Shown in pieces: positions 1-14,847 of a stretch of DNA of 15,840 bases. The stretch is taken from positions 1 to 15,840 of the IMG/VR virus record IMGVR_UViG_2737471850_000008; one strand, written 5' to 3'. Below the pieces are notes generated by a model. The model saw nothing but the letters and a program-made list of their open reading frames with translations. It was not told where the DNA came from and did not search any database. Position numbers and translations under genes: made by a program. How positions within the stretch are numbered: position 1 is the stretch's first letter; each line of letters opens with the position of its first letter. This DNA is from a virus. Lineage: Duplodnaviria; Heunggongvirae; Uroviricota; Caudoviricetes.

Positions 1-678
1 CATACTCCAGTATCGCAATGGTTTATATCTTCATTACCATTTATATTCAATCCGCCTGGCGCTAACATCAATGGTGTATCGCTCCAGATTGCCACATCTG
101 GTGTGTTCTGGACGTTAGTCTGGGAATTACGCCTATACCTTGCAATTCCATTTTTATATCTGATAATGAAAAACATCAAATATAAAGAAGCATTTGTTAT
201 TTTTTTAATGGGATGTGTTTTATTATTCAAGTATTTTATAAACAATGAACAACACCTGAGTTATATAATGTATTTCCTTGCAGGATTTCTTGTCGCTACA
301 ATCAAGAGCAACAAGCGCCCATCAGATATAATCTGCGCTTTATTATTATTCGCAGCCATATATTTTACTCGACATGCTTACAACACTACAACTCCGCTTT
401 ATATGTTTATTGTTTTCTACACAATAAAGTGCGGATGTGATTACTTTGGCTTACTTACATCCCTGCCTGTAACTATGCTGGGAACCTGCAGTTTCTCCCT
501 TTATTTAGTTCATGGGATAACTCAAACAGTATCTAAACATTATTTATATAGTGCAGGAAACTATGTTTGGCAGATTTGTGCAATTATTGCGGCAGGTATC
601 ATTGCGCCGGTTATGTACAAATATGTCGAAAGTCGCAGCATCATACATAAGCGTCCTCAACTTCAGATTGCAAAGTAG
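1..678 (+). CDS. Acyltransferase family 3 membrane protein (OafA/Oac-like polysaccharide O-acetyltransferase), C-terminal part; 5' end lies outside the window
   Basis: Frame 1 is open from base 1 to TAG at 676-678. Contains acyltransferase-3-type motifs FWTLVWELRLY (cf. WSLxVE..FY) and SFSLYLVHG (cf. S-x-x-YLxH) and several hydrophobic TM-like segments. Strongly AT-rich compared with the phage genes. Confidence 0.7.
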   Translation, partial: HTPVSQWFISSLPFIFNPPGANINGVSLQIATSGVFWTLVWELRLYLAIPFLYLIMKNIKYKEAFVIFLMGCVLLFKYFINNEQHLSYIMYFLAGFLVATIKSNKRPSDIICALLLFAAIYFTRHAYNTTTPLYMFIVFYTIKCGCDYFGLLTSLPVTMLGTCSFSLYLVHGITQTVSKHYLYSAGNYVWQICAIIAAGIIAPVMYKYVESRSIIHKRPQLQIAK

Positions 679-685
679 AACATTT

Positions 686-705
686 GCGCCCCTGAACAGG
701 GGCGC
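686..705. terminator. GC-rich hairpin (8-bp perfect stem GCGCCCCT/AGGGGCGC, loop GAAC) just downstream of the acyltransferase stop; candidate terminator
   Basis: Perfect inverted repeat read directly at 686-693 and 698-705. There is no immediate U-tract, so terminator function is uncertain. Confidence 0.4.
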
Positions 706-773
706 TATCCCACCACGCTGTTAAAATTTTGTTTCGTCTTACTTAGCATTTTTAAGTTGCCCATCGGAAAAAC

Positions 774-1038
774 GTCACAACCATCACGCCCCACAAAAAA
801 AACCATTAACCATCTGATTATCATGAATAAATGTTGTGATGGTAAAACCATCACAAAACGTAACGTAAACCGTCACACCCTATAAATTCAGCGAGTTATA
901 AAACAGAGTTGTGATGTTTTAAGGCCGTCACACTGTGATGCTCTTGTGATGCTCTTGTGATGGTTTTCAATATATGAATTTACTTATACATATCATATAG
1001 ATAAATGATATTTTTTAAATCTGTGATGTTTGTGACGG
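774..1038. repeat. Iteron-like cluster: 12 copies of heptamer TGTGA(T/C)G or its complement in 265 bp of AT-rich DNA, in both orientations
   Basis: Copies at 774, 782, 835, 848, 871, 910, 926, 934, 945, 956, 1022, 1031. Perfect palindrome TGTGATGG-TAAAA-CCATCACA at 835-855. Tandem 11-bp unit TGTGATGCTCT at 934-962 (one helical turn apart). Confidence 0.55.
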
Positions 1039-1213
1039 TTTTCCGATGCTCCCCCTAAATTTTTGAAAAAATTAGAAGTGGTCAGAAATCACCCTGATTT
1101 GTTGGTGGTTTTGTATATATCTCTGTTAGTGATTTGAGCATTGGTGCAGTACGTTAATGTAGGTATGGCTATAGTTCAGGCTGTGCAAAGTATTTCAGTT
1201 CCGCATCTCACGG

Positions 1214-1738
1214 TCATTCCGCGCCAGAACACATCAAATAAGGCCTTGTCACTTTCTCCCGCTTACGTGATCCCGCTGCGGCCGTTACGTTAAAAGTCAC
1301 GTACTGGCGAATTATCTGGATCAGCAACTGCGTGTTGTCCGCAATCTGGCTGTCTGTCACGCGAACCAGTATCACGTCCCAGTCAATCCCCGGCTGGCGT
1401 TCCTGCAGCTCAACGTACCCAATTCCCAGCCGTTCAAAGATGTTGATAAACCCCTCAACGGAACCGGCATCCCGCGCATTGACAAAGGCATATGCCACGC
1501 GCTTACGGAACAATGCCAGCGGTTCACCGTCAAAGCGGGTAATATCGCGGTCATACGCCAGCAGGTTCAGTAATGCCGGCGTACACGTCAGCGGATCGAA
1601 CTGATTCACTGGCCACGTAACCCAGCCGTAAACCTCAGTCCAGAACCGCCGCGCCGTTTTCAGCAGCTTCGCCGGCTCGCCTTTGTTCATCCAGGAAGGA
1701 AGCACCATCCCGGCCAGCTTTTTCAGGAACTCACTCAT
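1214..1738 (-). CDS. I: P2 gpI-like baseplate protein (tail protein I family)
   Basis: ATG at 1738 (MSEFLKK...) overlaps the stop of the upstream J-like gene by 8 nt. Segment TCTPALLNLLAYDRDITRFD resembles the recalled gpI motif (TCPANLLPWLAWAFSVDRWD). 174 aa versus about 176 aa for P2 gpI. Identification from memory, not a search. Confidence 0.6.
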   Translation of the reverse strand: MSEFLKKLAGMVLPSWMNKGEPAKLLKTARRFWTEVYGWVTWPVNQFDPLTCTPALLNLLAYDRDITRFDGEPLALFRKRVAYAFVNARDAGSVEGFINIFERLGIGYVELQERQPGIDWDVILVRVTDSQIADNTQLLIQIIRQYVTFNVTAAAGSRKREKVTRPYLMCSGAE

Positions 1739-2639
1739 TTTCAACAACAACCGCAAGCGATTTCAGGCGTGGAACACTCAGTTCGCTGGTGATATCACCC
1801 AGTGAAAAAGACAGTGATTCCGTCTGAGCAAATGTCCTGTGGATCTCCCGCCCCAGCTGAGAAAAGGAAAAACGCGAATATGGCCACGTCTTCCTGACGT
1901 CATAATCAGCATTCTCACGAAAAGCACAGCGGATCATGTTCTCCACCCCGTCCTTCAGGGTTTTCCTGTCCTCATCGCTGAAATTGGCCAGATTTTTGAC
2001 ATAAACTGTGACGGACAGATCATGAAGCGTTTCCGGCATGGGATAGCACTGCATATCATCACCGTGGCCGTGATGCCCCTGCGTGTTGATATAGTCATTG
2101 ACGGCATCCACGAACGGCGAAGAAGCCACCCCGCTGTCCAGCAACAGATACGCGTTGGCGGTACCGGGTCCCCTCGGCGCTTCATGTTCAAAGAAAATCC
2201 GGTCAATACTCAGCCCTGCAACGCCGGCAATCATCGACCGGTAAACGGCGTCAGTGTGGTAATTCCCCACCAGATTGAACTGATTGCGGCAGCGTTCGCG
2301 CAGCTCGTCATCACTTTCTTCATCCGCGCCCGGTACGGTCAGCCAGTTTTCTTCGCTGGCCACGTGGCTGATACCGTCAACGGCAACCGGCAGAATGCGG
2401 TAATATCCCGGCGCAAGGTTATATGCGCCCCCGGTGCCGGTGGCTTTTACCGGCAGTAATGCGCAGGCCGTACCGGAAGCGATCACTACATCCTCACTGG
2501 TGGCCAGCTCATACACGCGACCGTTAATGCGCTCTGTCTGGATACTGCCCCAGCCCGGTGTCCCGCTGTGCCGGGATGAACGCGATCTCGTCCATCTGGC
2601 TGTCAAATCCCTGCATTGCCCGTCTGGGCATGTTCGCAA
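1731..2639 (-). CDS. J: P2 gpJ-like baseplate protein; 5' end anomalous (TTG start in ORF track, Arg/Ser-rich first ~35 codons; possibly frameshifted or truncated)
   Basis: Central region ESDDELRERCRNQF resembles recalled P2 gpJ (ESDTDYRLRIQQAF). Size matches gpJ (302 aa). An ATG-initiated 35-codon ORF in another frame (ATG at 2631, MPRRAMQGFDSQMDEIAF...) overlaps the annotated N-terminus. Stop TGA at 1731-1733. Confidence 0.55.
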   Translation of the reverse strand: MRTCPDGQCRDLTARWTRSRSSRHSGTPGWGSIQTERINGRVYELATSEDVVIASGTACALLPVKATGTGGAYNLAPGYYRILPVAVDGISHVASEENWLTVPGADEESDDELRERCRNQFNLVGNYHTDAVYRSMIAGVAGLSIDRIFFEHEAPRGPGTANAYLLLDSGVASSPFVDAVNDYINTQGHHGHGDDMQCYPMPETLHDLSVTVYVKNLANFSDEDRKTLKDGVENMIRCAFRENADYDVRKTWPYSRFSFSQLGREIHRTFAQTESLSFSLGDITSELSVPRLKSLAVVVENE

Positions 2640-2669
2640 TGAGAAAATCGGTTAATGCCGTTAACTGGC

Positions 2670-3122
2670 TCATATCATGGCCACCGTAATGCGTTTCAGC
2701 CCTTTGATGCGGCGTACTGCCAGTGTGGACTCTGCAATCAGGCTGGAGCGGGTTTCGTCACTTTCCTGCCCCGGATGGCTCTCACGGCGACCAACAGACG
2801 CAAATTCGCCCATCAAATCAGCTTTGGCACGTGCATATACCGCTTTGCGATAACGGGCGCACAACAGATTTTCGCCGTCAATTTCCACGCCCGAAACGTC
2901 CGCCGCGCGCTCATGGCCAGCATTGCGATACCTTGCCGCCACACTGACCAGATCATCATTGATTTCGCCGGCTGCAGTCAGCAGTGCCTGGCGGATGGTG
3001 GCCGCATCAATATCGGCCGGAATGGTGCGCTGGGACTGAAAATCTTTCACGCTCAGGTCAGGCCAGAAGCCATCATTCGTCAGAGTGGCATCGTCAAAAT
3101 CAATTGAAGTTCCGCTGAACAT
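2670..3122 (-). CDS. L: P2 gpL-like head completion/stabilisation protein
   Basis: ATG at 3122 preceded by GGAG (SD); the track ORF starts at an upstream GTG (3161). C-terminal pattern ADVSGVEIDGENLLCARYRKAVYARAKADLMGEF resembles recalled gpL. It follows the M gene as in P2. Confidence 0.75.
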   Translation of the reverse strand: MFSGTSIDFDDATLTNDGFWPDLSVKDFQSQRTIPADIDAATIRQALLTAAGEINDDLVSVAARYRNAGHERAADVSGVEIDGENLLCARYRKAVYARAKADLMGEFASVGRRESHPGQESDETRSSLIAESTLAVRRIKGLKRITVAMI

Positions 3123-3215
3123 CCTGTTTCTCCGGAAAAAAGCGGGCTGGCCGGTTTCCACGGGCGATACGCTTATGCGATCCCCTCCACCGCGCCCGCT
3201 TTCGGGTCGGTAGTC

Positions 3216-3407
3216 TTACTCGCCGCGTTTTGCGGCCTGAATCTCACCTTCTTCAAACCACGCATCAGATGCGCGGCCGTCAGCAGTCTGATAGTGGATC
3301 AGATACTGATTGCAGCTGTTGGTGTACTCCGCACGGGCTTTGATATGCCCCTCTTCGCCGCTAATGGAAACTTCAACAACCTGGCCTAACTCATGCTTAA
3401 ACGACAT
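3216..3407 (-). CDS. Hypothetical 63-aa acidic protein inserted between small terminase and head completion genes
   Basis: ATG at 3407 lies 1 nt after the TGA of gene M (TGATATG coupling) and is preceded by GGGAG. No P2 gene occupies this position. No family recognised. Confidence 0.5.
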   Translation of the reverse strand: MSFKHELGQVVEVSISGEEGHIKARAEYTNSCNQYLIHYQTADGRASDAWFEEGEIQAAKRGE

Positions 3408-3408
3408 A

Positions 3409-4122
3409 TCAAACTCCCGTAGACTCTTTTTTCAGCGCCCGCAGACGCGCAGCAATACGCTGCAACATCGTGCCAACACCACATTTAGGGTCGAATCCCT
3501 TCGCCTGCTCCAGCAGTTCCTTAGCCCGGAGCAATACTTCCCTGTCTTCCGTTGCCGCTGCGCGTGGCTCTCCGTTTTCATCGCGTAGCAGGTGCAGACC
3601 GGCAAACTTCAGGTATTTGGCCTTAATGACCTCATACACATTCCAGTGCTGCGTCACGTTTTCCAGCGTACGGCCAAAATACGGCTCCACATCATGCCCC
3701 TGTACGGCTTCCGCTTCCGCCCAGGACAACACCGTATCCGCCACAAACACCGGGAACGTACTGCCGAACGCGGCCGGGGTTTCCTGCCCCCGCTGGATTG
3801 CCACATCCGCCCAGTCCAGCGCCTGGTCAAACTGGCCTGTATCAAACAGCCAGACGACACACCAGGCAAAAACAGGATTCTGTTGCACACTGTCACCTTC
3901 CAGCCAGGATTGCGCGGTTGGCATCCAGCGCGGTAACAGCACATCACGCTTAAATTCCATTCGCTCAGCGCGGCTTTCAATCGCTGCAGCTGCGGCGACA
4001 TCTTTCTCCAGCGCGACAATCTGAATATGCAGGCTGGTTTCCGTGTCCAGAGACTGCTGCTGTCGCAGTAACCGCTCCGCTTCAATTCGTGCGCTGTGGC
4101 GCTGTGCCGGTGACAGTTGCAT
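3409..4122 (-). CDS. M: P2 gpM-like terminase small (endonuclease) subunit
   Basis: 237 aa; ATG with AAGGGGGAT SD; positioned between N and L as in P2; sequence character consistent with the gpM family (from memory). Confidence 0.8.
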   Translation of the reverse strand: MQLSPAQRHSARIEAERLLRQQQSLDTETSLHIQIVALEKDVAAAAAIESRAERMEFKRDVLLPRWMPTAQSWLEGDSVQQNPVFAWCVVWLFDTGQFDQALDWADVAIQRGQETPAAFGSTFPVFVADTVLSWAEAEAVQGHDVEPYFGRTLENVTQHWNVYEVIKAKYLKFAGLHLLRDENGEPRAAATEDREVLLRAKELLEQAKGFDPKCGVGTMLQRIAARLRALKKESTGV

Positions 4123-4132
4123 TAAATCCCCC

Positions 4133-5161
4133 TTACTCGCCTGCCGGAGGCGCGACAGGTGCCCCGATAGCTACCGCACTTTCATCAAACGCGGCGTACA
4201 GTTCCGGATACTCAACCGCATAACCTTCGTTACGCAGGTATTTGTTTTCGTACTGTTTACGGTCTTCCACAAACTCCGCTTTACGCTGACGCGTGCCGCG
4301 CTGGGTGTAGATGTGCAGGTTTGGCAGTGTCGTAACAATCATGCGTTTGCCTGGCATAAACGGCGGTACGTAAGCCGTGCGGCCGGCGATGCTGTCAGAC
4401 AGCAGTTGCGCGGCGATCTTCTCCGTGGGTTTGTCTGCTTTCTGATACAGACGGAACGACTCCGCCGCGACCAGATCAGCGCCGACAAGAACCACCAGGC
4501 GTGGATCATTACGGTACTGTGCCGGGATTTTGGCGTTGATAAGGTCGGAGGCCATTGCATCCAGCGACACGTAATCGCCTTTCCCGTCACCGTCAAGCAC
4601 CACCGCATCAGTGATGATCTGCTGGCCGTCCTTCCACTCTTTGACGATCTGATGCCAGCCCTTGTTCACATCCTCGCCGTTCGGGTTGGTTTCCGCGTTC
4701 GTGGTCTCGGCCACTTTGGTACCGTTAAAGCCGATACGCAGCATATCCAGCGCAAACGCCTGATTGGTGAACTCCTGAACACGCTGGAAAAACTCGTTTT
4801 CATCGCCGGCGTTCGCCCAGACAGAAAGCAACTGCCAGGTGAGTGCGGCGCATGAGTCGGTCTCGACCAGACTGTAATCATTACCACTCACGCCCACTTT
4901 CTTACGGAAGCGGCCATCCAGTACACGCCCGGTATACAGGCCAGAGCTGCCAACCGGAACCACCTGCCCCTGCAGCTGATCGACATCGGCAACGGTGATC
5001 AGATTCAGGAAATCAGACTGCTCCATCAGCGCATTGCGCAGCTGGGTTTCTTTGGGGTCGGTGAGTGCAAACCAGCGTTCGCTGTCGGTCGCCCCGTAGG
5101 ATTCACGCAGCCCGGTGTGATACTGAAGCAGAAACTCACGGGCTTTCGCATTTAATTGCAT
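4133..5161 (-). CDS. N: P2 gpN-like major capsid protein
   Basis: 342 aa; ATG with AAGGA SD; C-terminal region (DPRLVVLVGADL...YVPPFMPGK...) resembles recalled P2 N (DPDLVVIVGRQLL...VPYFPAD); lies in O-N-M order. Confidence 0.85.
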   Translation of the reverse strand: MQLNAKAREFLLQYHTGLRESYGATDSERWFALTDPKETQLRNALMEQSDFLNLITVADVDQLQGQVVPVGSSGLYTGRVLDGRFRKKVGVSGNDYSLVETDSCAALTWQLLSVWANAGDENEFFQRVQEFTNQAFALDMLRIGFNGTKVAETTNAETNPNGEDVNKGWHQIVKEWKDGQQIITDAVVLDGDGKGDYVSLDAMASDLINAKIPAQYRNDPRLVVLVGADLVAAESFRLYQKADKPTEKIAAQLLSDSIAGRTAYVPPFMPGKRMIVTTLPNLHIYTQRGTRQRKAEFVEDRKQYENKYLRNEGYAVEYPELYAAFDESAVAIGAPVAPPAGE

Positions 5162-5195
5162 ATTCTTTTTCCTTAAAGAAAAGTAGTGTTATCCC

Positions 5196-6035
5196 TTACA
5201 GGAAATTGAAGCCTTTTTTGCCCTTGCTGAATTTCTTGTCCGGCAGTTGAGTAACTTTGTTATTCAGCTTGCTGAAGTTTTTCACCAGCTCCGGCAGGTT
5301 CCCCACCAGACGCGCAAAATCTTCGGTGTCCACTACTTCCTTCACGGTGTCCACATCGTCCTGCACATCAGATACCGCTTCTTCCGCCTCACCCAGACGG
5401 GTTTCAATAGCAGATACGCGCTTATCAATGGCATCCAGCGCTTCAGCCAGCGCCTGTAAGGCATCAGACTGTGAAGGTTCCTGCTCCGGGGTCTGCTCCG
5501 GTTCTTCGATACTGAAAAAATGGCGCCAGCCCTTTTTCGCTGTCTTTGACATTCCCTTTTCCTTTTTAAATTCCCTGACTTCATCAAACGCCAGCGGCTT
5601 GTATGGTCCGATGCGTTTTCCCCTGGTGCGGCTGAAACGTAACCGTGTGGTGCTTACCCCGGCCGGACTGTCAGTAATGGCCAGTCCCTCAAGATAGGTT
5701 TTCCCGGTATTTCTGAAATTGCCGTCCGGTGTAAACTCCGGTGATAAAAATAAAAGCTGACCGTCTGCATTTGCCTGTAGCAATGAAATCGCCGGACAGA
5801 GGCGGGCATATAAACGAAGAATACCTTCATCATCCCGCTCGGCTTTTACTTCCAGCACCTCCCCCATATTCCCGAAATTACGGGAATGTTCCGGCCATAA
5901 CAGCGCGGTATACAAAGAGGGGTCATATAATTCAGCGGCATCAAGCAACCATTGTTCTTCAATAAATCGCTTATCAACCGTTTCACCCGCAGTGGCGATA
6001 CAAATCCAGTTTGTTGCCAGTTGTGAACCTGACAT
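5196..6035 (-). CDS. O: P2 gpO-like capsid scaffolding protein/protease
   Basis: ATG at 6035 (MSGSQLATNW...) preceded by GGAGG; the track ORF extends to 6095. N-terminal WICIATAGETVDKRFI...GEVLEVKAE resembles recalled gpO (FFRIGVEGDTCDGRVI...GDVAELKAE). Acidic C-terminal half typical of scaffolds. Confidence 0.8.
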   Translation of the reverse strand: MSGSQLATNWICIATAGETVDKRFIEEQWLLDAAELYDPSLYTALLWPEHSRNFGNMGEVLEVKAERDDEGILRLYARLCPAISLLQANADGQLLFLSPEFTPDGNFRNTGKTYLEGLAITDSPAGVSTTRLRFSRTRGKRIGPYKPLAFDEVREFKKEKGMSKTAKKGWRHFFSIEEPEQTPEQEPSQSDALQALAEALDAIDKRVSAIETRLGEAEEAVSDVQDDVDTVKEVVDTEDFARLVGNLPELVKNFSKLNNKVTQLPDKKFSKGKKGFNFL

Positions 6036-6163
6036 ATTGCCTCCGTTCATGCTGCGGTTTTCAGTATCGCCAATAAAATTAACCGCCGCATTCACTTCAT
6101 TTCGGATATAGGCTATTAGCCGAACACATCAGAAATAAAGCGGGATTTAATATACAAACGCCC
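6036..6163. promoter_or_regulatory. Divergent intergenic region between O and P; expected location of late promoters
   Basis: Position between divergently transcribed head operons, as for P2 PO/PP. No canonical TGT-N12-ACA Ogr box was found by eye, so promoter elements are not defined. Confidence 0.35.
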
Positions 6164-7960
6164 GTGCATAATGTGTGCATGGCTAAATATTCAGAAGAAT
6201 TAAAAGGCGTTGCGCGGGCGCTTTATTTAAAACGCTATACCCCGCAGGAAATTGCCAGCGAACTTAATCTGCCTAACAGACGCATTGTCTATTACTGGGC
6301 GGAGAAATATTGCTGGGCGGAATTACTCAGTCATGAATCCACCGAAGATGCATTAAACCGTCGCATTCAGTCACTGACATTACGTGAAGGGAAATCGGAG
6401 CTGGAGCTGCGGGAGCTGGACAGTCTCGTTTCTCACCTGGTGAAACTACGTGCACAGCACAATAAGCATCAGGAAAAGCTGGCAGAAATTAAACACAGTG
6501 AAAATGATGCGCCGGCGCGTCAGTCCGGTGGCGACGAAAAGCCCCGGAAACGTGGCAAGTACAAAAAGAACGACATCAGCGGACTGACACAGGAAGATTT
6601 TGACCGGTTCGCGCTGGAGCACCTTTTCGGTTACCAGAAACACCTTCGCGCTAATCTTCATCAGCAAATCAGGAACATCCTGAAAAGCCGCCAGATTGGT
6701 GCAACCTGGTATTTCTCAATAGAAGCCTTTGAGAATGCGGTCATGACAGGCGATCCGCAAATCTTCCTGTCCGCATCAAAGGCTCAGGCGGAAGTATTCC
6801 GCAGCTATATCGTCAACATTGCGGAGCAGTATTTCGGCGTGGAGCTGACGGGAAACCCCATCCGCCTCTCCAACGGCGCGGAGATGCGATTCCTGTCCAC
6901 CAACAAGAACACCGCCCAGTCATACAGCGGCCATCTGTACTGCGATGAATATTTCTGGGTACCCAACTTTGCAAAATTAAACGAAGTGGCCAGCGCGATG
7001 GCCACACACGACAAATGGCGAACCACCTACTTTTCCACCCCCAGCAGCAAAACGCACCAGGCGTACCCGTTCTGGACTGGTGAAGAATGGAAGCGCGGTG
7101 ACAAAAAACGCGCGCGCGTACAATTTCCCACGGAGAAGGAGCTGCGCGACGGTGGACGGTTATGTCCTGATGGGCAGTGGCGCTACATCATCACAATGGA
7201 AGACGCGATCGCAGGCGGGTTTAATCTCGCCAGCATCGGGAAGCTGCGCAACCGCTACAACCGCGACACTTTCAACATGCTGTATATGTGCGTGTTCGTG
7301 GACAGCAAGGACAGCGTATTTTCGTTCTCTCACGTAGAACGCTGCTGTGTAGATCCGGATATCTGGGAGGATCATGACGAAAACCTGCCCCGGCCGTTCG
7401 GCAACCGTGAAGTGTGGGCGGGTTATGACCCGGCTCGCAGCGGAGACACCTCCACCTTCGTGATCATCGCGCCGCCGATAGTGGCCGGCGAAAAATTTCG
7501 GGTACTGCGTGTATTCCACTGGCAGGGGATGAACTGGAAGTGGCAGGCGGCACAGATTAAGAAGCTGTTTGGCCAGTACAACATGACCTACATCGGCATT
7601 GATATCACTGGACTGGGTAGCGGTGTCTTTGAAGACGTTCAGCACTTTGCCATGCGTCAGGCAGTGGCGATCCGCTACGGCGTCGAGACCAAAAATCGTC
7701 TGGTGATGAAGATGATCGACGTTATCGAAGACGGCCGCGTGGAATGGGATAAGGAGAAGACCGAAATCGCCGCCAGCTTTATGACCATCCGCCGTACGTC
7801 CACGGCCAGCGGCAACGCAATGACTTTCGTCGCCGATCGCACAGCAGAAACAGGACACGCAGACAGTTTCTGGGCTATCGCCCATGCCATTGACAACGAG
7901 CCATTAAACTTTGAAAACCAGCGAAAATCACGCTGGGGTAACTTAGGGAAAGCAGCATGA
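6164..7960 (+). CDS. P: P2 gpP-like terminase large (ATPase) subunit
   Basis: About 593-598 aa; the track start is GTG at 6164 and the first ATG is at 6179 (MAKYSEELKG). Size and position match P2 P. Stop overlaps the Q start (ATGA at 7957-7960). Confidence 0.85.
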   Translation: MHNVCMAKYSEELKGVARALYLKRYTPQEIASELNLPNRRIVYYWAEKYCWAELLSHESTEDALNRRIQSLTLREGKSELELRELDSLVSHLVKLRAQHNKHQEKLAEIKHSENDAPARQSGGDEKPRKRGKYKKNDISGLTQEDFDRFALEHLFGYQKHLRANLHQQIRNILKSRQIGATWYFSIEAFENAVMTGDPQIFLSASKAQAEVFRSYIVNIAEQYFGVELTGNPIRLSNGAEMRFLSTNKNTAQSYSGHLYCDEYFWVPNFAKLNEVASAMATHDKWRTTYFSTPSSKTHQAYPFWTGEEWKRGDKKRARVQFPTEKELRDGGRLCPDGQWRYIITMEDAIAGGFNLASIGKLRNRYNRDTFNMLYMCVFVDSKDSVFSFSHVERCCVDPDIWEDHDENLPRPFGNREVWAGYDPARSGDTSTFVIIAPPIVAGEKFRVLRVFHWQGMNWKWQAAQIKKLFGQYNMTYIGIDITGLGSGVFEDVQHFAMRQAVAIRYGVETKNRLVMKMIDVIEDGRVEWDKEKTEIAASFMTIRRTSTASGNAMTFVADRTAETGHADSFWAIAHAIDNEPLNFENQRKSRWGNLGKAA

Positions 7961-8976
7961 AAAAACGGAAATACAGGGAACGCCGCACCGCCAGCAAGCC
8001 GCGCCATATGAGCCTTATTACCCTGGGTAAACCGGAACCCATTCTGACGACCGGCACAAACTACACAGACGTCTGGTATGACAATGAAGCGGAACACTGG
8101 ACGCTCCCGATTGACCGGCTGGCGCTGGCGCAACTGGTGAACCTGAACGCGCAGCACGGCGGTGTGCTGTATGCCCGTCGCAATATGGTGACGGCAAACT
8201 ATAAAGACGGCGGACTGACGCATGAACAGCTTGGTGCAGCCGTGTTCGACTGGCTGACCTTCGGTGATGTGGCCATTCTGAAAGTGCGTAACGGCTGGGG
8301 GGATGTGGTGGCACTGTACCCGCTGCCGGCACTCTATACCCGCCAGCGTAAGACCGGGGAGTTTGTGGTACTGCAGCAGGGTGAACCGATGATTTATCCG
8401 CCTGAAGATATTATTTTTCTCAGGCAGTACGATCCGCAACAGGCGATTTATGGTCTGCCGGATTATATCAGCGGTATCCATTCTGCCCTGCTTAACGGTG
8501 AGGCAACAATTTTTCGTCGGCGTTACTACCATAACGGCGGACACACAGGTGGCATGATCTACTGTAACGACCCAAATATGACTGATGAAGTGGAAGAAGA
8601 AATTATTCAGAAGCTGGAGCAGTCAAAGGGGATCGGGAACTTCAGCACCATGTTTGTGAACATCCCCAAAGGCGATCCGGACGGCATCAAATTTATCCCG
8701 ATTGGGGATATCAGCGCCAAAGATGAGTTTCAGAACATCAAGAGCATCAGCGCCCAGGACGTACTGACCGCGCATCGATTCCCGGCAGGACTGGCGGGGA
8801 TTATCCCGACGAACGGCGCAGTAATGGGAGATGTTGAGAAAGCGTCCAAAACCTACCGCAAAGCAGAAATTTTGCCCATTCAGCGCATGTTTACCGCCGC
8901 AGTGGAACAGGAAAGTGATGTACCGCCCCACCTGTACCTTAATTTCCTGAAAGACAGTGAGCTGGAAGGTGATTAA
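7957..8976 (+). CDS. Q: P2 gpQ-like portal protein
   Basis: 339 aa versus about 344 aa for P2 Q; translationally coupled to P; family identification from memory. Confidence 0.85.
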   Translation: MKKRKYRERRTASKPRHMSLITLGKPEPILTTGTNYTDVWYDNEAEHWTLPIDRLALAQLVNLNAQHGGVLYARRNMVTANYKDGGLTHEQLGAAVFDWLTFGDVAILKVRNGWGDVVALYPLPALYTRQRKTGEFVVLQQGEPMIYPPEDIIFLRQYDPQQAIYGLPDYISGIHSALLNGEATIFRRRYYHNGGHTGGMIYCNDPNMTDEVEEEIIQKLEQSKGIGNFSTMFVNIPKGDPDGIKFIPIGDISAKDEFQNIKSISAQDVLTAHRFPAGLAGIIPTNGAVMGDVEKASKTYRKAEILPIQRMFTAAVEQESDVPPHLYLNFLKDSELEGD

Positions 8977-9029
8977 TGTTCGCAAAAAGGCTAAAATATC
9001 ATCGTTTTCCAACTTCCGGAGCGATGGAT

Positions 9030-9305
9030 ATGCGGGTAATGAAGGTTTACTGTCCGGTATGTGAGGCAAGGGCTGTTATCAAAAAAACAGCCCGAAAACA
9101 CAAGGAACTGTCGGATTTATATTGCGCGTGTACCGATGTTGAATGTGGTCACACTTTTGTGATGAATATGACATTCTCACATACCATCAGCCCCAGCGCC
9201 AAATCCAGCGATGCGTTGATCGCCACTATCTGTAACAGCCTTGATATCCAGCAAAAGCAGCTGATGTTAAAGTTTCTGAGTCAGGACGGCACTGCTGCCG
9301 CATAG
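9030..9305 (+). CDS. ogr: Ogr/Delta-family zinc-finger late transcription activator, with a C-terminal extension relative to P2 Ogr
   Basis: CPVC...(22 aa)...CACTDVEC four-cysteine arrangement, as in Ogr/Delta. GGAG 9 nt upstream of the ATG at 9030; alternative starts at 9024 and 9042; the track ORF begins at 8976. Confidence 0.75.
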   Translation: MRVMKVYCPVCEARAVIKKTARKHKELSDLYCACTDVECGHTFVMNMTFSHTISPSAKSSDALIATICNSLDIQQKQLMLKFLSQDGTAAA

Positions 9306-9306
9306 A

Positions 9307-9337
9307 AAAAAGCACCGCTACCGGTGCTTTTATTTTC
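9307..9337 (+). terminator. Rho-independent terminator after ogr
   Basis: Stem AGCACCG / CGGTGCT (9311-9317 and 9322-9328), loop CTAC, followed by TTTTATTTT; A-run upstream. Confidence 0.75.
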
Positions 9338-9383
9338 TGAGATGTAACAGATTCCCATCTATCAACGTCGATGAATGACCAAG

Positions 9384-9444
9384 TGATTAATAGTCCCCCC
9401 CTCCTAAACATGATATTATCTTTCCAAATTTTGGGAGGCATCTT
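9384..9444 (+). promoter_or_regulatory. Putative promoter and RBS of the glycosyltransferase moron, containing a C7 homopolymer
   Basis: TATTAT (9414-9419) as candidate -10; TTAATA/TGATTA about 21-24 bp upstream as candidate -35; C7 run at 9395-9401 lies between them; strong SD GGGAGG at 9432-9437. Confidence 0.3.
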
Positions 9445-10164
9445 ATGTTAATAGTCTCAGTTCTTAAATGTAGTAAAGAGTTTACCCCTAAACACGCCCA
9501 ATGGCTTCATCGTCAGTTCAAAGATATTCCATCTATATGTTTAACCGATGCAGATAATATTCCTGGAGTTAACACAACCCCTTTGCTTTATAACTGGCCG
9601 GGATGGTGGTCTAAAATTGAACTATTTAATCCTAATCACCCAGTCCTTGGAGACCAAGATTTACTCTATTTTGACGTAGATGTTGTGGTCACGGGAGATA
9701 TTCATATTTTCGAAGGTGCGAAGAAATTTACAATGCTTCGGGAGTTTAACCATGCCTCAAGAGTAAACTCATCAATAATGATGATTCCGGCGTCGATTAA
9801 AAAGACGATTTGGGAACAATTCATTATTGATCCTGAGAAAATTATGCGCAATTGTCAGACTGAAGACAAATGGGGTGATCAGGGATTTCTCGGTAGCATC
9901 ATAAAACCAGCCCTATGGCAGGATATCATTCCTGGCTCAATTGTTAGTTATAAATGTGACATCGCCACCCCCTCGATGATTGGCTTCAATGCAAATTTAG
10001 CCTCTGAGGCTGCGACAGGGAAAGTCCCTGATAATGTGGCGGTTGTTTGCTTTCATGGCAGTCCACGCCCCTGGCGTACTGGTTTTGATTGGGTTCCTTC
10101 GTTTTCCCTGCGGGATACTCTGTACGGTAAATTAAAGAACTTTAAAATAAGAATGAAGCAATAA
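9445..10164 (+). CDS. GT8-family-like (glycogenin/LgtC/RfaJ-type, DxD) glycosyltransferase; AT-rich moron
   Basis: Motifs in GT8 order and spacing: DxD (LLYFDVDVVV), NSS (cf. FNSGV), WGDQGFL (cf. GGDQGILN), CFHGSPRPW (cf. HFxGxxKPW). AT-rich compared with the flanking phage genes. Strong SD and ATG. Confidence 0.6.
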   Translation: MLIVSVLKCSKEFTPKHAQWLHRQFKDIPSICLTDADNIPGVNTTPLLYNWPGWWSKIELFNPNHPVLGDQDLLYFDVDVVVTGDIHIFEGAKKFTMLREFNHASRVNSSIMMIPASIKKTIWEQFIIDPEKIMRNCQTEDKWGDQGFLGSIIKPALWQDIIPGSIVSYKCDIATPSMIGFNANLASEAATGKVPDNVAVVCFHGSPRPWRTGFDWVPSFSLRDTLYGKLKNFKIRMKQ

Positions 10165-10201
10165 AGATAACGCCCCTATTGCTTCAATGTTCGCTCCTTC
10201 C

Positions 10202-10219
10202 CCTAACAATAAAGTTAGG
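10202..10219. terminator. Hairpin CCTAAC-AATAAA-GTTAGG between the convergent glycosyltransferase and primase-helicase genes; possible bidirectional terminator
   Basis: 6-bp perfect inverted repeat read directly; AT-rich stem, so weak. Confidence 0.3.
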
Positions 10220-10232
10220 CACTAGTGAACCG

Positions 10233-12890
10233 TTACTTTTCCCGGCCAAATATCCAGCAGCGGAATGTTTCCGGCATCCGTTGCATATCCCCTTTACCAC
10301 GATTATGGCGCTCACTTACCGCGCTGCGCGTGGTGCTTTGTCTGATAAACCGGCGCTCATTGCCGTTTTTAAGCAGCTTTTTAATTTCCGTTAACGTGAA
10401 CGGAATACGCTGCCGGTGTGCTGCGGCGACCTCTTCCATGTGATTGAAATTAACCGCGATTTCATTTTCATCTGATGAATGATTGATGCCATAAGGTGCC
10501 AGTTCATCCAAGTAATCAAACAGCTCCCAGAACTCCTGCACCAGAGGATGATCCTTTTTAAGTGCCTGACAACGTTCAACGGCCAGCGCGGTGATGGCTT
10601 CACGCGTTTTTTCTATACGTTCAACCGGCACCGGTACAACAAGTGCAAGCGCCTCCAGCAAGCCCACAAGCTGCGCGTGATTCTTTGCAATACGGATATG
10701 GCGAATACTGCTATTAGACTCCAGCTCATTCCTAGCTCGCTCGTACCCCCTGCCGAACGTCTGCATGATTTCTTTTTCGCGCATGGTGGCCAGTAATGTG
10801 AATCCGGATACCTGGCTAACGGGGAGTTGTTCAAGTCGTTCTGCAGCGTGGCGCGTCTGAATGGACTGGCCGCGCTTGTCGGTATAGATGTGGATGATAC
10901 GCTCCAGAAACGCCTTGCTGCCGTCTGTGTCGGCATTTTGCGCTATCACAATACTTCCCCTGAACGGCGGCTCATACGTCTCGTTATTGTTCGATTTGAT
11001 ACCCACGGCGCGGGAGGCACGACCGTTATACAGTGATTTCAGCTCGTCCCAGTCAAAAGCGCGTTGCTTGGCGTTATCGGTAGTACGGTCGCCCTCAATC
11101 AGCACAACCGGCAGATTACCGACCTGGGCGAAGTTACGGCCACGCGCGGCGGCGGTAGATTTAGATGGGTCAAACCCTTCGTATTCCTCACGGCCGGCGA
11201 GCTTCCAGAGAAATTCTATCAGCGTGGATTTACCTGTCCCCGGCTCGCCCACGATTTCCAGAAACGGAAATGACTTGTCACGCTCGCGGATTTGTTCGGC
11301 AAACAGCGACCCCAGCCAGAACGCCAGCGCCACATACCCTTTTTCACCAAATGCCGTCCAGATATCGTCTACCCAACCCGTAGTAAACTCGTTCAGCTTC
11401 GGATTCAGATCCAGCGCCGGCGTGAGGCTCAGGCTCTTAACGCTGGCACTGTTGATTTCGAAGTAATCCTCGTCGTTCATCTCATACAGCCGGCCATCGC
11501 AAACGGCCACGCGGTTAAACAACCAGGCGGCATAATCCTTGTTATAGCCGATGAAATTCTGCGTCTTTACCTCTTTGATTTCAGGGAGGCGCATCTGGAT
11601 GAACTTATCCAGCTGTTTGGTGCTGCCTGTGTACACCGCCCCTTTGGCGATGTGCAGCAGACGCTTTTTGAACTCGGCGGAGCTGGTGAGCTGATTAGCC
11701 GTGAAAGTATCTTTCACGGCTGGCCGGTTAGGCATACTGACTTTCACGTAATACCAGGACTCGTCCGTAGGTTCAGACCGCTGAAAGTAAAGCGGCGTCA
11801 GCCAGCAGTTAGCTATTTCGGTCACGCCGCCTGACTCTTTAACCGCCCGTTCTTTGGCCTCCCACTCCATCACCACTTCGGTACCGGTATTGGTGATGCG
11901 CTCATAGGCTCGCATATACCTGTCCAGATCCAGCTCAAACCAGTACATGCGGGAGTTATGCTCAAAGTAGAACGAGTGCCACTCGTTATGCTGATGCATG
12001 AGCAGCGCTTTCTCAGTCGGGCTTTTTGCCAGAAGGAGATCGCCATAGTAGCGATAATTTTTAATGTCCGACTTACTGAACCGGTTACGTAACAACAGGT
12101 CATTCCAGTCCAGCGATGCCGATGATTTCACCGGCTGCGCGGCACGAGTTTTCCATCCTGCAGCATCACTACGGGCAGCGAACGCCAGTGTGTGCTTTGT
12201 GCCGGCTTTATCGCCGTCAAACGCCCATACAAGACGTGGACGTGGTTTTTCACCCAGTTCTTTGGCCAGCGTATCCAGTGCGGCCAGCGGATAGTTGTTA
12301 CTGCTCAGTGTGGCAACTGCAGGTAACCCTACCTGGCACAGACTCAGCGCGTTGAAGATTCCCTCAGTGATCCAGATTTCGTTCACTTCCTGCAGGTTGA
12401 TAAAGGGAGGAACCCACCAGTGACCGACATAGCTTCCCCTGATGTTGGCTTTCTGCTTACCGAAGCGCTGCGGCTGGTCAATGATGCGCTCCCATGTTGC
12501 ACCGCATGACAGCGAAAATCTGACCGTTGCCGACCCCATGCCATCTTTCACGAATGCACCCTGGGTAAAACAGCCTTTTAATGGCTCAGTCTCCAGCCCT
12601 CTGGCCTCGCGCAGATACGCCTCAGCTACTGCATGGGGGTTATCTTCTGTGGTCTGGTAACGTTTTGACCAGTCTTCAAAGATATCCGGATACAGCTCTT
12701 TCACGACAATCTGATGTGCGCAGTTATTTTCACGGCCACATTTCAGAATCCAGGGCTTTTCTATGCTGGTAAATAATTCGCGCTTACGACAGGCAGGGCA
12801 AACGCCCTGCTGCAAATACTTATCCCGCTCTTTAAATTCAAAGTCCCGAACAAGACGGCGCACAACGTCCTGTTGTATCGTTTCGTTCAT
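10233..12890 (-). CDS. Primase-helicase of the P4 alpha type (zinc-binding N-terminus, Toprim primase, P-loop NTPase)
   Basis: ATG at 12890 (MNETIQQ); the track ORF starts at TTG 12926. CPACRK...(16 aa)...CGRENNC zinc motif; Toprim-like ITEG and FDGDKAG; Walker A GEPGTGKS and Walker B-like VVLIEGD. Confidence 0.8.
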   Translation of the reverse strand: MNETIQQDVVRRLVRDFEFKERDKYLQQGVCPACRKRELFTSIEKPWILKCGRENNCAHQIVVKELYPDIFEDWSKRYQTTEDNPHAVAEAYLREARGLETEPLKGCFTQGAFVKDGMGSATVRFSLSCGATWERIIDQPQRFGKQKANIRGSYVGHWWVPPFINLQEVNEIWITEGIFNALSLCQVGLPAVATLSSNNYPLAALDTLAKELGEKPRPRLVWAFDGDKAGTKHTLAFAARSDAAGWKTRAAQPVKSSASLDWNDLLLRNRFSKSDIKNYRYYGDLLLAKSPTEKALLMHQHNEWHSFYFEHNSRMYWFELDLDRYMRAYERITNTGTEVVMEWEAKERAVKESGGVTEIANCWLTPLYFQRSEPTDESWYYVKVSMPNRPAVKDTFTANQLTSSAEFKKRLLHIAKGAVYTGSTKQLDKFIQMRLPEIKEVKTQNFIGYNKDYAAWLFNRVAVCDGRLYEMNDEDYFEINSASVKSLSLTPALDLNPKLNEFTTGWVDDIWTAFGEKGYVALAFWLGSLFAEQIRERDKSFPFLEIVGEPGTGKSTLIEFLWKLAGREEYEGFDPSKSTAAARGRNFAQVGNLPVVLIEGDRTTDNAKQRAFDWDELKSLYNGRASRAVGIKSNNNETYEPPFRGSIVIAQNADTDGSKAFLERIIHIYTDKRGQSIQTRHAAERLEQLPVSQVSGFTLLATMREKEIMQTFGRGYERARNELESNSSIRHIRIAKNHAQLVGLLEALALVVPVPVERIEKTREAITALAVERCQALKKDHPLVQEFWELFDYLDELAPYGINHSSDENEIAVNFNHMEEVAAAHRQRIPFTLTEIKKLLKNGNERRFIRQSTTRSAVSERHNRGKGDMQRMPETFRCWIFGREK

Positions 12891-12929
12891 AAATAATCCA
12901 GATGTGAAATAATGGGTAAAAGGCAAAAA

Positions 12930-13148
12930 CTATATTCTGTACTGCTTGTTATATCGCTCATGTGTCATTAGTTCCCAGCTTCTGCCCTTATCCTTACTCA
13001 GTAATCGCCAGTGATAAGAAACATGAACAGAGAAATAATGTTTTGGCTTAATAACCTGATATACCTTTTTGCCGTTGTAATATTCTGTCAGCACTGAAAA
13101 TGCCTTGTGAATGACACTTTCACTTGCATGAGAGGTCACTGTAAGCAT
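12930..13148 (-). CDS. Hypothetical 72-aa protein
   Basis: ORF between the exonuclease and primase genes with ATG 2 nt after the exonuclease stop; weak SD; AT-rich; no recognised motifs. Could instead be non-coding regulatory DNA. Confidence 0.35.
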   Translation of the reverse strand: MLTVTSHASESVIHKAFSVLTEYYNGKKVYQVIKPKHYFSVHVSYHWRLLSKDKGRSWELMTHERYNKQYRI

Positions 13149-13150
13149 CG

Positions 13151-13720
13151 TTATTTCACACTGGCTATTTTTACAAGATACATCCAGACATAAGAAACAA
13201 CTTTAGCCTGATGAATGGCATCATATAAAGCGTGATGTTTAACACCATCAAACTTAATAATATTACGAACATTCAGCCCAAGTGTTTTTGACAGTTCAAC
13301 AACCGTTCTTACATCACGGTCATTCCAGTAGTACCAAAGTGGATCGGCAAACCCGCATTTCTCTGATGCATTACGTAAAATAACATTGTCGAACGCTGCA
13401 CTATTCCCCCATACCTGTACTTTAGATGGGTCAGAATGCTCAGTAATAAAAGCTTCCAGATTAGCTAACGTCAGAGGCAAGTCCAGACAATCGTCATTAA
13501 GCAGCTCGCTACGCGCTTCGGCATCCTGACGCATCCACCATAATACGGTTTCTGACCCCATAGTGAGACCGTGGCCTACACAGCTGCCCAGGCTGACACG
13601 TTGATAAAACTGTTCACCCATTTCGCCAGTTTCAGGGTCAAAGAATACAGCACCGATAGAAGCAATCGCAGAAGTCGGTTTATTATCCATTGTTTCAAGG
13701 TCAATCATTAAATGTTTCAT
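13151..13720 (-). CDS. DEDDh-family (DnaQ/RNase T-like) 3'-5' exonuclease
   Basis: Exo I MIDLETMD (D-x-E), Exo II WGNSAAFD, Exo III HHALYDAIH (H-x4-D). ATG with AAGGAA SD. AT-rich. Confidence 0.8.
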   Translation of the reverse strand: MKHLMIDLETMDNKPTSAIASIGAVFFDPETGEMGEQFYQRVSLGSCVGHGLTMGSETVLWWMRQDAEARSELLNDDCLDLPLTLANLEAFITEHSDPSKVQVWGNSAAFDNVILRNASEKCGFADPLWYYWNDRDVRTVVELSKTLGLNVRNIIKFDGVKHHALYDAIHQAKVVSYVWMYLVKIASVK

Positions 13721-13729
13721 ATCGGTTCC

Positions 13730-14065
13730 TTAACGTTGGGAAGCTGCAACAGATTTAAGATGCGAGTTATTACTTTTTAACGCTGTGGTAGCCAGCGACA
13801 TAAGACCGGAAATGTTATTTTCAGTTGGTATATTTCCGCCAAATACCATAAGCGTGATTTTGTGCAGTTCTTCAAAATCATCACTATCATTATTAAAGCG
13901 AGCAGTGGAGGTTATACCCTCAAGGCATTTTGCAAGCTGAATGTTTAATTCCATTAACTGCAAGCCATCGCTATGTACAGAGAATGTTTCTTTATCAATG
14001 GTTTTTGCCTGAGCGTGATAGTTTTGCAACAGACTACGAATCAGCGTGGCATATTTAGTCTTCAT
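13730..14065 (-). CDS. Hypothetical protein (about 111 aa) in the early operon
   Basis: ATG at 14065 with GGGGAT SD (track start is TTG at 14077); 26 bp downstream of cox; AT-rich; no recognised domain. Confidence 0.5.
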   Translation of the reverse strand: MKTKYATLIRSLLQNYHAQAKTIDKETFSVHSDGLQLMELNIQLAKCLEGITSTARFNNDSDDFEELHKITLMVFGGNIPTENNISGLMSLATTALKSNNSHLKSVAASQR

Positions 14066-14091
14066 GATAATCCCCAATAATATTTAGTTTA

Positions 14092-14373
14092 CTAACGAGC
14101 ACTTTTATCTTTCGTGAATAAACGGTTCTTCCAGTCATGCCATTCAGGCGGGGCAATTTGAGCCAAATGAATGGCATAAGCATCCCATTCCCCCCGATGG
14201 ATATAGATTTCCCCACCTTTTTTTGATGGATTTAGAGGGTCTTTCATGCGGATTACCGGCAGTTTTCCAGCCGTGGCCATTTTGCGAATTGCAGCAGGCG
14301 TTTTGCCTATATATTCGGCAAAAAGCTCAGGGGTCACCAACTCTGAAAGCGCCTTTTCTGCTGGTTCCTTCAT
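14092..14373 (-). CDS. cox: P2 Cox-like excisionase / transcriptional regulator
   Basis: 93 aa; segment ELFAEYIGKTPAAIRKMATAGKLPVIRMKDP resembles recalled P2 Cox (QEFAKLIGKSTGAVRRMIDKGKLPVIDMTDP). Divergent from C. SD AAGGAT. Confidence 0.8.
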   Translation of the reverse strand: MKEPAEKALSELVTPELFAEYIGKTPAAIRKMATAGKLPVIRMKDPLNPSKKGGEIYIHRGEWDAYAIHLAQIAPPEWHDWKNRLFTKDKSAR

Positions 14374-14481
14374 CTGTGGTATCCTTCGTTAGTTTGGGTT
14401 CCTAGGGCGCTTTAAGTCGTTCTAGGGTTCTTTTGTCAAGGTTCTTTTGTAAGAACCAACAATAGTTGCGATACAAGAACC
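14374..14481. promoter_or_regulatory. cox-C switch region with candidate operator repeats (face-to-face Pe/Pc promoters expected by analogy with P2)
   Basis: Direct repeats TTC(C)TAGGG at 14399-14407 and 14420-14427, about 21 bp apart. Tandem GGTTCTTTTGT at 14426-14436 and 14440-14450. Inverted GGTTCTT...AAGAACC at 14440-14457, and another AAGAACC at 14475-14481. Confidence 0.6.
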
Positions 14482-14781
14482 ATGTCAAGAAATTATGCGG
14501 AGAAACTCCGGCAGATCCGGAAAGCTGAAGGGTTAACTCAAAAAGATTTTTCAGAGCTTACTGGGGTAGCTCTTGGAACAATAAAAAAGTACGAAACTGG
14601 CCATCAGCCAGCTCGTGCAGAAGTCTTAGAAAGTGTTATAGAGGTACATATGTTTGAAAAATATACACTCTGGTTAATGACAGATAAGACGGCACCAATT
14701 GCGGGGCAGGTGTCCCCGTCTCTCTCCCCTGATGGGCAAGACAACATAACATCATCCCGTTCCACCCGGAAAATTGGCTAA
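14482..14781 (+). CDS. C: P2 C-like immunity repressor
   Basis: 99 aa (same as P2 C). LTQKDFSELTGVALGTIKKYETG helix-turn-helix and KYTLWLMTDKTAPIAGQVSP closely resemble recalled P2 C (KYTLWFMTNQIAPESGQIAP). Confidence 0.85.
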   Translation: MSRNYAEKLRQIRKAEGLTQKDFSELTGVALGTIKKYETGHQPARAEVLESVIEVHMFEKYTLWLMTDKTAPIAGQVSPSLSPDGQDNITSSRSTRKIG

Positions 14782-14847
14782 ACATCTGGTTTTTCTATGC
14801 GTTAGCGCAAAATTTACATAATGATTCATACATCGGAGGGCTTCGCT

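Follow-up and report, generated by a model that had tools for sequence, protein, structure and literature searches.

What is the function of a dense cluster of short repeated words lying in AT-rich DNA at the int-distal end of a decayed prophage? The question is raised by positions 762-1048 of a 15,840-nt stretch of viral DNA (IMG/VR record IMGVR_UViG_2737471850_000008, positions 1 to 15,840; the window from here on), which represents a decayed P2-family (Evevirus-like) prophage between raiA and pheL of E. coli. The initial annotation had described a cluster of TGTGA(T/C)G heptamers here and proposed an iteron origin or cis replication region for the primase-helicase that the element encodes, or else a regulator-binding array or a mark of the element boundary. 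Judging from sequence comparisons, we consider it likely that 762-1048 is the cis-acting replication origin of this prophage, as suggested by the co-occurrence of such arrays with the primase-helicase, the adjacency of the two in several relatives, the absence of the array from relatives with a gpA replication protein, and the co-variation of the word with the C-terminus of the primase-helicase. The origin in this window would belong to a defective element: cos and tail genes have been lost, and the int, cox and primase-helicase genes are still intact.

Anatomy and setting of the repeat array

The array takes up 287 bp and is framed by an 18-nt terminal inverted repeat, CATCGGAAAA(A/C)CGTCACA, found at 762-779 and 1031-1048 with 17 of 18 positions complementary; owing to this repeat the array is slightly longer than the 265 bp first described. 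Its parts are as follows (a strand is given where the feature has one; relatives are introduced below).

762-1048: whole array, candidate replication origin; the same 265-310 bp plan is found in 14 related phages and contigs
773-788, minus strand: left end pair, CGTCACA (773-779) and a degenerate CATCACG (782-788), 9 bp start to start; both exact in phage ev239
789-834: left spacer, A-rich, GC ~0.32; matches the position of the left AT-rich spacer of L026, L021, L022 and phi3
835-855: palindrome core, TGTGATGG-TAAAA-CCATCACA
834-856: extended perfect palindrome, TTGTGATGG-TAAAA-CCATCACAA; two inverted iterons
871-877, minus strand: lone iteron CGTCACA
910-932: inverted iteron pair, TGTGATG (910-916) and CGTCACA (926-932)
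934-962, plus strand: direct iteron triplet with starts at 934, 945 and 956 (11-bp phasing); relatives have comparable inner runs
963-1021: 59-bp spacer, GC 0.15; candidate DNA unwinding element, with a 45-60 bp counterpart kept in relatives
1022-1037, plus strand: right end pair, TGTGATG and TGTGACG, 9 bp start to start

There are 14 exact copies of TGTGAYG in the window (dinucleotide shuffles of the whole window have 4.5 on average), and 11 of them fall within 773-1037: four on the minus strand (773-779, 849-855, 871-877 and 926-932) and seven on the plus strand (835-841, 910-916, 934-940, 945-951, 956-962, 1022-1028 and 1031-1037). When a first-order Markov model is fitted to the surrounding sequence (679-1213), the expectation is 0.10 copies in 265 bp, and the Poisson probability of at least 11 copies is 2.7e-19. 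Eleven of the twelve heptamers reported in the initial annotation are therefore exact; the twelfth, CATCACG at 782-788 on the minus strand, has one mismatch in the window, though it is exact in ev239. The extended form of the word is TGTGAYGGTTTT. The rest of the earlier description holds as given: the block is AT-rich (GC 0.34, as compared with 0.49 for the window and 0.15 for the spacer 963-1021), carries the word in both orientations, and includes the 8+5+8 palindrome (which extends by one base on each side), the inverted copies at 910-932, the 11-bp-phased triplet and the 9-bp pair. The very AT-rich spacer sits between the triplet and the right end pair, where melting is predicted, and the two end pairs are mutually inverted. 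No DnaA box (with at most one mismatch) is found in the array of the window or of any relative.

A structured RNA or a small gene was ruled out: a search of the block against Rfam gave no match, no open reading frame (ORF) of at least 50 amino acids overlaps 725-1140, and promoter-like sites are not in excess in the block. A host intergenic feature was ruled out as well, since the block is found only with the prophage. The block (679-1213) is present in 22 out of 5426 complete E. coli genomes, in a single chromosomal copy in each; it lies in this prophage in every one of the 22 whose annotation was examined (so that strains carrying the repeats without the element, which would have pointed to the host, were not seen), and the prophage is full-length in 12 of the 22. 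The raiA terminator, AACGC(G/A)CCTTCGGGCGCGTTTT, serves as the att core, and is present beside raiA and again beside int (18693-18714 in L001 and the int-proximal end in L002 just past window position 15840, with 26742-26959 as the corresponding region of L003). Given this location of the core, the array and the acyltransferase gene next to it are both within the prophage, at its int-distal end; the core is more than 1 kb beyond the window start, away from the array, and the suggestion that the array marks the element boundary has to be dropped.

The sequenced virion counterpart of the prophage is phage ESSI2_ev239 (ev239; Peduoviridae, Evevirus), and an 85% identical variant of the element (L209) has its array beside attR/raiA. 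Comparison of 773-1037 with these two gives 98% identity in the twelve words in both cases, as against 76% outside the words for L209 (Fisher p = 1.9e-6) and 87% for ev239 (Fisher p = 0.004); the only changes within words are C/T switches at the Y position. By this measure of sequence conservation, the words are under stronger constraint than the spacers. A stretch of ~70 bp on the right-hand side of the array (window positions 1040-1110; ccgatgctccccctaaatttttgaaaaaattagaagtggtcagaaatcaccctgattt) is also better conserved in ev239 and L209 than the array spacers.

The genes of the prophage are arranged in the order int, helix-turn-helix repressor, Cox, two small genes, exonuclease, ParE-like ORF, primase-helicase, 239-aa ORF, Ogr, portal, terminase, scaffold, capsid, gpM, tail genes, cos, array and acyltransferase. 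Both ends of the ev239 record break within CCGCAGGCGGGTGCGGTGTAGCG, from which it follows that the intact phage has cos ~480 bp from the array, on its right.

The array sits between two convergent transcription units, and this arrangement speaks against an operator array by which a repressor, Cox, Ogr or CRP would control the acyltransferase gene or a small unannotated gene, even though TGTGA is a CRP half-site and regulators typically bind arrays of short words in both orientations. The genes on either side run towards the array (the acyltransferase gene, which the initial annotation took as a possible target, ends facing it), L209 carries the array and has no acyltransferase, and there is no surplus of promoter-like sites. 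The dyads that are present have spacings of N11 (835-855) and N13 (910-932), and no TGTGA-N6-TCACA, as CRP would need, is found; nor do the words fit Ogr, for which the consensus is TGT-N12-ACA. The C-cox intergenic region (14374-14481) contains no TGTGA, and has repeats of its own (GGTTCCTAGGG, GTTCTAGGGTTCTTTTGT and AAGGTTCTTTTGTAAGAACC) that are unrelated to the array word and are probably the repressor and Cox operators. As the word moreover changes between phages and the geometry stays constant (see below), we regard an operator function as very improbable.

Arrays in phages with related primase-helicases

We scanned complete phage genomes, without bias as to the word, for the most clustered short word (k-mers). 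Seven complete genomes encode a primase-helicase of the phiCTX orf37 type (ev239, phiCTX, RSY1, Smp131, phi3, vB_HboP_4908 and UFJF_PfPro), and in each of them the array is the best or second-best short-word cluster, with 8-15 words over ~270-310 bp of DNA that is locally AT-rich; there is one dominant cluster per complete genome, and in ev239 a single cluster of the array word. As a positive control, the same scan recovers crr and ori in P4. In P2 it finds nothing comparable. The arrays of the other six genomes are:

phiCTX, 35107-35380: GGTAAT, 12 copies; annotated in GenBank only as 'R3 repeats' with integration host factor (IHF) sites, between attP and cosR
RSY1, 16-292: GGTAAY
Smp131, 33053-33330: GGTAAC
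Halomonas phage vB_HboP_4908, 192-466: GGTAAY
UFJF_PfPro, 814-1086: CTGACA, 10 copies
phi3, 7404-7718: GGAACA, 15-16 copies; begins 75 bp past the primase stop codon

Among 80 viral contigs encoding relatives of the primase, seven (L021-L024 and L026-L028) encode proteins with 51-55% identity and include the downstream sequence. In all seven, an array built from TGTAAC, TGTAAG or TGTGAC follows the primase gene at a distance of 0.2-1.3 kb, in DNA with a local GC of 0.27-0.33. Together with phi3, this makes eight relatives with the array directly downstream of the primase gene (0.07-1.3 kb). Counting complete genomes and contigs, the array is present in 14 out of 14 primase-bearing relatives for which the relevant region is available. 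A scan of the collection for TGTGATG-N4-TGTGATG gave mostly chance matches, and the true arrays it found are those of L201 (identical to the window) and L209.

These arrays share an architecture. Each of them spans ~265-310 bp. With few exceptions, either end carries two direct copies, mostly 9 bp apart, and the two ends are mutually inverted. Inward of an end pair comes a spacer of 45-60 bp that is usually AT-rich, the middle of the array contains direct copies in runs of two to four at 10-11 bp, and a GGAAA(A) motif is found just outside the outermost word. The window follows this plan: 773/782 on the minus strand, a spacer, mixed copies, the triplet 934/945/956 on the plus strand, the 59-bp spacer, and 1022/1031 on the plus strand. 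What varies by lineage is the word (TGTGAY, TGTGAC, TGTAAC, TGTAAG, GGTAAY, CTGACA or GGAACA). Written as AAAGGTnACA, the words form a graded series: AAAACCRTCACA in the window, AAAGGTCACA in L026, GGTTACA in L022 and AAAGGTAATT in phiCTX. Strict IHF consensus sites are found in the spacers of L021, L026-L028, phiCTX (where they are annotated), RSY1 and Smp131.

The position of the array relative to other cis elements is informative in L022, whose order is int, C, cox, small genes, primase, array, C5-methylase, HEPN protein, GmrSD protein, cos (GGCGTGGCGGGGTCACGA) and portal. Here the array starts 190 bp past the primase stop codon, 3.3 kb from cos and far from int; as it is apart from both cos and attP yet beside the primase gene, the constant partner of the array is the primase gene.

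This bears on two other readings. The array is near cos in six phages (170-730 bp in the window phage, phiCTX, RSY1, Smp131 and the Halomonas phages) and IHF sites occur in spacers, as would suit a packaging accessory site (cosB-like) for the small terminase subunit and/or IHF. A cosB-type site would be expected to travel with the terminase and cos module, and the array does not: prophage L004 (NZ_LR778142.1) shares ~80% nucleotide identity in the head and tail genes and the same cos sequence with the window phage, has a different early region (gpA replication endonuclease, and 186-type CII and repressor), and contains neither a TGTGAYG cluster nor any other comparable word cluster. L004 thus has the cos and structural module without the array, and P2 also lacks one. 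Besides the distance to cos in L022, the phi3 array is several genes away from the portal region, and both of these arrays abut the primase gene; the word also varies between phages with alike cos sequences. A packaging site is for these reasons quite improbable.

Integrase arm-type or excisionase sites of the attP intasome are the other reading, in line with arrays that adjoin attP in phiCTX, L026, RSY1 and the Halomonas phage. In the window phage, however, the acyltransferase gene separates the array from attP, and the att-proximal word is not the array word: it is GTCCACA, repeats of which flank attP (six in ev239) and are probably the integrase arm-type sites. As the early operon lies between int and the array in L022 and phi3, we consider the intasome reading the least probable of all.

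Two further observations concern the relatives. In phi3, the core GGAAC is common to the array word (CCGGAACA) and to the putative C-cox operators at 4300-4398 (two copies of TGGTTCCGTnTGGGTAC); chance could account for this, or there may be a link between repression and replication. 'Bacillus phage vB_BpuM-ZY1' (L211, OR820920.1) has nearly the gene order of Halomonas phage vB_HboP_4908 and a primase 44% identical to that of the window, and its host assignment looks doubtful; the record is trimmed at gene boundaries, so the attP/array/cos region is missing and the record is uninformative on the array.

The primase-helicase as the candidate initiator

The protein that would read the array is encoded by the following gene.

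10233-12890, minus strand: primase-helicase gene (toprim and DUF5906/SF3-like helicase; phiCTX orf37 family), the proposed initiator
10236-10463, minus strand: C-terminal ~75 residues, predicted by modelling to form a winged-helix-like domain; proposed iteron reader, including the word-covarying residues 862 and 886-887

The ORF extends to a TTG at 12926 (the RefSeq start is an ATG, giving 885 aa). The protein shares 41-47% identity with phiCTX orf37 and the homologues encoded by RSY1, Smp131 and Halomonas phage vB_HboP_4908 (~41% for orf37 itself), and 30% with the phi3 protein. It had been called an alpha-type primase-helicase, which is right as to architecture (toprim and SF3/D5-like helicase); by descent it is an orf37 homologue, with marginal local similarity to P4 alpha in BLASTP (toprim E = 0.003, Walker A E = 0.002). 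Among DNA-handling proteins, it is the one that remains as shared by all phages with an array: in phi3, only repressor, Cox and primase are encoded upstream of the array.

Two lines of evidence, co-variation and a structural likeness to SaPI Rep, led us to propose the C-terminal domain of this protein as the reader of the words. For co-variation, we used 431 alignment columns that are identical in four TGTAACC phages from two clades 52% identical to each other. L026, whose word is TGTGACC, differs at five of the 431 columns, three of them in the last ~75 residues (hypergeometric P ~9e-4, with a domain boundary chosen after the data had been seen). Window residue 887 is Thr in the two phages with a TGTGA word and Val in each of the six with a TGTAA word. 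The co-varying positions map to two strands of the wing in the structural model. Comparison of L026 with L027 and L028 alone could not localise the specificity determinants since the C-terminus is generally variable, and it was the second clade that sharpened the result. For structure, the best specific fold matches of the modelled C-terminal region are the Cch and SaPI (staphylococcal pathogenicity island) Rep initiator helicases, with Cch as the top Foldseek match (probability 0.95). Searches of the whole protein against PDB chains (with a single sequence and with a profile) gave weak toprim matches only, and none for the C-terminal domain.

From the array and this protein we infer iteron binding, melting and origin use in the following manner. 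The TGTGAYG iterons would be read by the winged-helix-like domain of the phage's own self-loading primase-helicase, and helicase hexamers would assemble on the iteron clusters (end pairs and inner triplets). The assembled helicase would then melt one or more of the AT-rich spacers, and bidirectional theta replication would start, primed by the toprim primase of the same protein and independent of DnaA. This mode of assembly and melting is suggested by the inverted end pairs, the AT-rich spacers and the phased inner copies.

Several observations weigh against an origin at 762-1048. In 43 more distant viral contigs with high GC, no array was found within 10 kb of the primase gene; their arrays may lie beyond the flanking 10 kb, as in the window phage, where the array is not adjacent to the primase gene either (~9 kb separate the two in the deleted copy and ~22 kb in the intact prophage, and on the excised circle the distance is ~5 kb) and is instead ~480 bp from cos. 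The window array has one degenerate end iteron and no strict IHF site. The gpA-type negative controls are only two (L004 and P2). The fold matches are modest (Foldseek E = 0.026 for Cch), and the origin-binding domain of P4 alpha is not recovered among them; the co-variation rests on few events and a post hoc domain boundary, in a domain that is the most variable part of the primase-helicase anyway. We put the origin reading at likely and no higher because the evidence is comparative, because of the small number of gpA-type controls, and because of the 43 distant contigs.

Comparison with known origins and neighbouring cargo

The origin would work in the way P4 alpha does at ori and crr, and SaPI Rep at the SaPI ori. 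The likeness to P4 includes clusters of 6-10 short words (8-bp words in P4) that extend over ~100-300 bp and use both orientations; word pairs at 9-bp spacing (in each crr repeat) and runs at 10-11 bp; an initiator that combines in one polypeptide a toprim primase, an SF3-type helicase and, at its C-terminus, a DNA-binding domain (predicted in our case); and the location of crr, with attP on one side and the 3' end of the initiator gene on the other, as for the array in L026 and phiCTX. P4 replication is DnaA-independent. The differences are that the P4 word is TGTTCACC, that the protein has marginal similarity to alpha and falls outside a strictly defined P4 alpha family, that P4 has two separate clusters and the window phage one, and that the pseudo-palindromic end-pair design of the window array is not the P4 layout.

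Since P4 requires two iteron clusters, the array might instead correspond to crr alone, that is, to an accessory cis element (an enhancer, in P4) bound by the primase-helicase, with initiation elsewhere; crr is located between attP and the end of the alpha gene, and holds 9-bp-spaced word pairs like those of the window. With one word cluster in complete ev239, one dominant cluster in the other complete genomes, and very AT-rich spacers of its own that could unwind, the array is unlikely to be an accessory element of this kind. A more remote analogy to the proposed origin is found in SV40 large T antigen and papillomavirus E1 origins, where inverted short words on either side of AT-rich DNA are the assembly site for two hexamers of an SF3 initiator-helicase; these systems are eukaryotic, with a much more compact origin and no fused primase, and serve as an analogy only.

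SaPI Reps are self-loading helicases whose C-terminal winged-helix domain reads iterons (PMC9371898). In the SaPI ori, 6-12 iterons, each 5-6 nt long, directly follow the initiator gene; at least two per side, in opposite directions, surround an AT-rich centre, and pri and rep are fused in SaPI5 (PMC9371898). SaPI Rep and SCCmec Cch are likened to the window protein by the modelled fold; no relationship to the primase-helicase was detected at the sequence level, and the hosts here are Gram-negative. The array is also larger than the SaPI ori (~270-290 bp), usually with two AT-rich spacers and with inner runs of two to four copies, and in the window phage it is detached from the initiator gene.

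The closest counterpart is the region of 'R3 repeats' and IHF sites in phiCTX (NC_003278), which is the homologous element: its span (35107-35380) is equivalent, and it has 9-bp end pairs and a matching position relative to cos. It differs in its word (GGTAAT instead of TGTGAYG), and the GenBank record gives the repeats no function. We found no function for the array, and no origin for phiCTX-like phages, in the searchable literature; an earlier suggestion in the original phiCTX papers, which are outside that literature, is possible. The genome papers of Smp131 and RsoM1USA make no mention of an array or origin. On the sequence evidence, then, the array is probably an iteron origin of the known kind used by self-loading initiator-helicases, to which our observations add an architecture conserved across the family.

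P2-family phages with a phiCTX-type primase-helicase instead of the gpA rolling-circle nickase are widespread, and include the cytotoxin-converting phiCTX and prophages of Ralstonia, Stenotrophomonas, Halomonas and E. coli. The origin reading would reduce their candidate replicon to a 290-bp fragment and one gene, and proposes a function for the phiCTX 'R3 repeats'. The family would also form a natural series in which changes in the DNA specificity of a self-loading helicase can be studied. For annotation, the block should be treated as phage DNA with a probable role in replication, not as a host regulatory region.

A wider proposal has four parts, which we put forward jointly and tentatively, as a possibility we would not expect to hold in full. 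First, one origin module of ~270 bp (an end pair, an AT-rich spacer and phased inner iterons, followed by these in mirror image) might serve the whole clade of orf37-type primase-helicases in P2-family phages of Gamma- and Betaproteobacteria. Second, a very small number of substitutions in the C-terminal winged-helix domain, in its wing, might suffice to re-programme word specificity, an example being the Val/Thr at window residue 887 that tracks A/G at word position 4. Third, such a change of specificity would create replicon-specific 'immunity'. Fourth, the module might have moved around the genome, with the neighbouring interval (to cos or attP) acting as a hotspot for cargo.

The other features recorded in the window are a hairpin and two deletion junctions, at which internal deletions are seen relative to the intact copy in NZ_AP023286.1.

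686-705, plus strand: GC-rich hairpin GCGCCCC-TGAACA-GGGGCGC, just past the acyltransferase stop codon; it parts the cargo gene from the array
1300-1303: deletion junction; ~5.65 kb lost (tail-fibre genes and cos), with a 4-bp junction overlap; cos is normally ~480 bp to the right of the array
2543-2544: deletion junction; ~6.86 kb lost (tail, lysis and sheath genes), with a 2-bp junction overlap

In other E. coli genomes this prophage is found with other deletions. Directly upstream of the primase-helicase gene is a 72-aa ORF (window 12930-13148, minus strand) that has a ParE-like toxin domain (Pfam PF24732, E = 1e-16). The 239-aa ORF between ogr and the primase gene (window 9445-10164, plus strand) has no Pfam match, and two small unrelated ORFs are found at its position in ev239. 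The RefSeq record of ev239 (L003, NC_049392.1) contains Nextera adapter and poly-A at 29141-29203, and ~116 nt at 1-116 have no match to the prophage, both breaks being inside the cos sequence.

The array marks where cargo genes tend to insert. The interval next to it (up to cos or attP) carries lineage-specific cargo and is empty in L209: an acyltransferase, the ctx toxin, a VgrG cluster, C5-methylase with HEPN and GmrSD proteins, and a glycosyltransferase are the kinds found, in intervals at window 1-678, L005 362-1222, L006 546-7582, L022 7028-9938 and L212 30942-32036. This interval looks like a hotspot for moron or defence genes.

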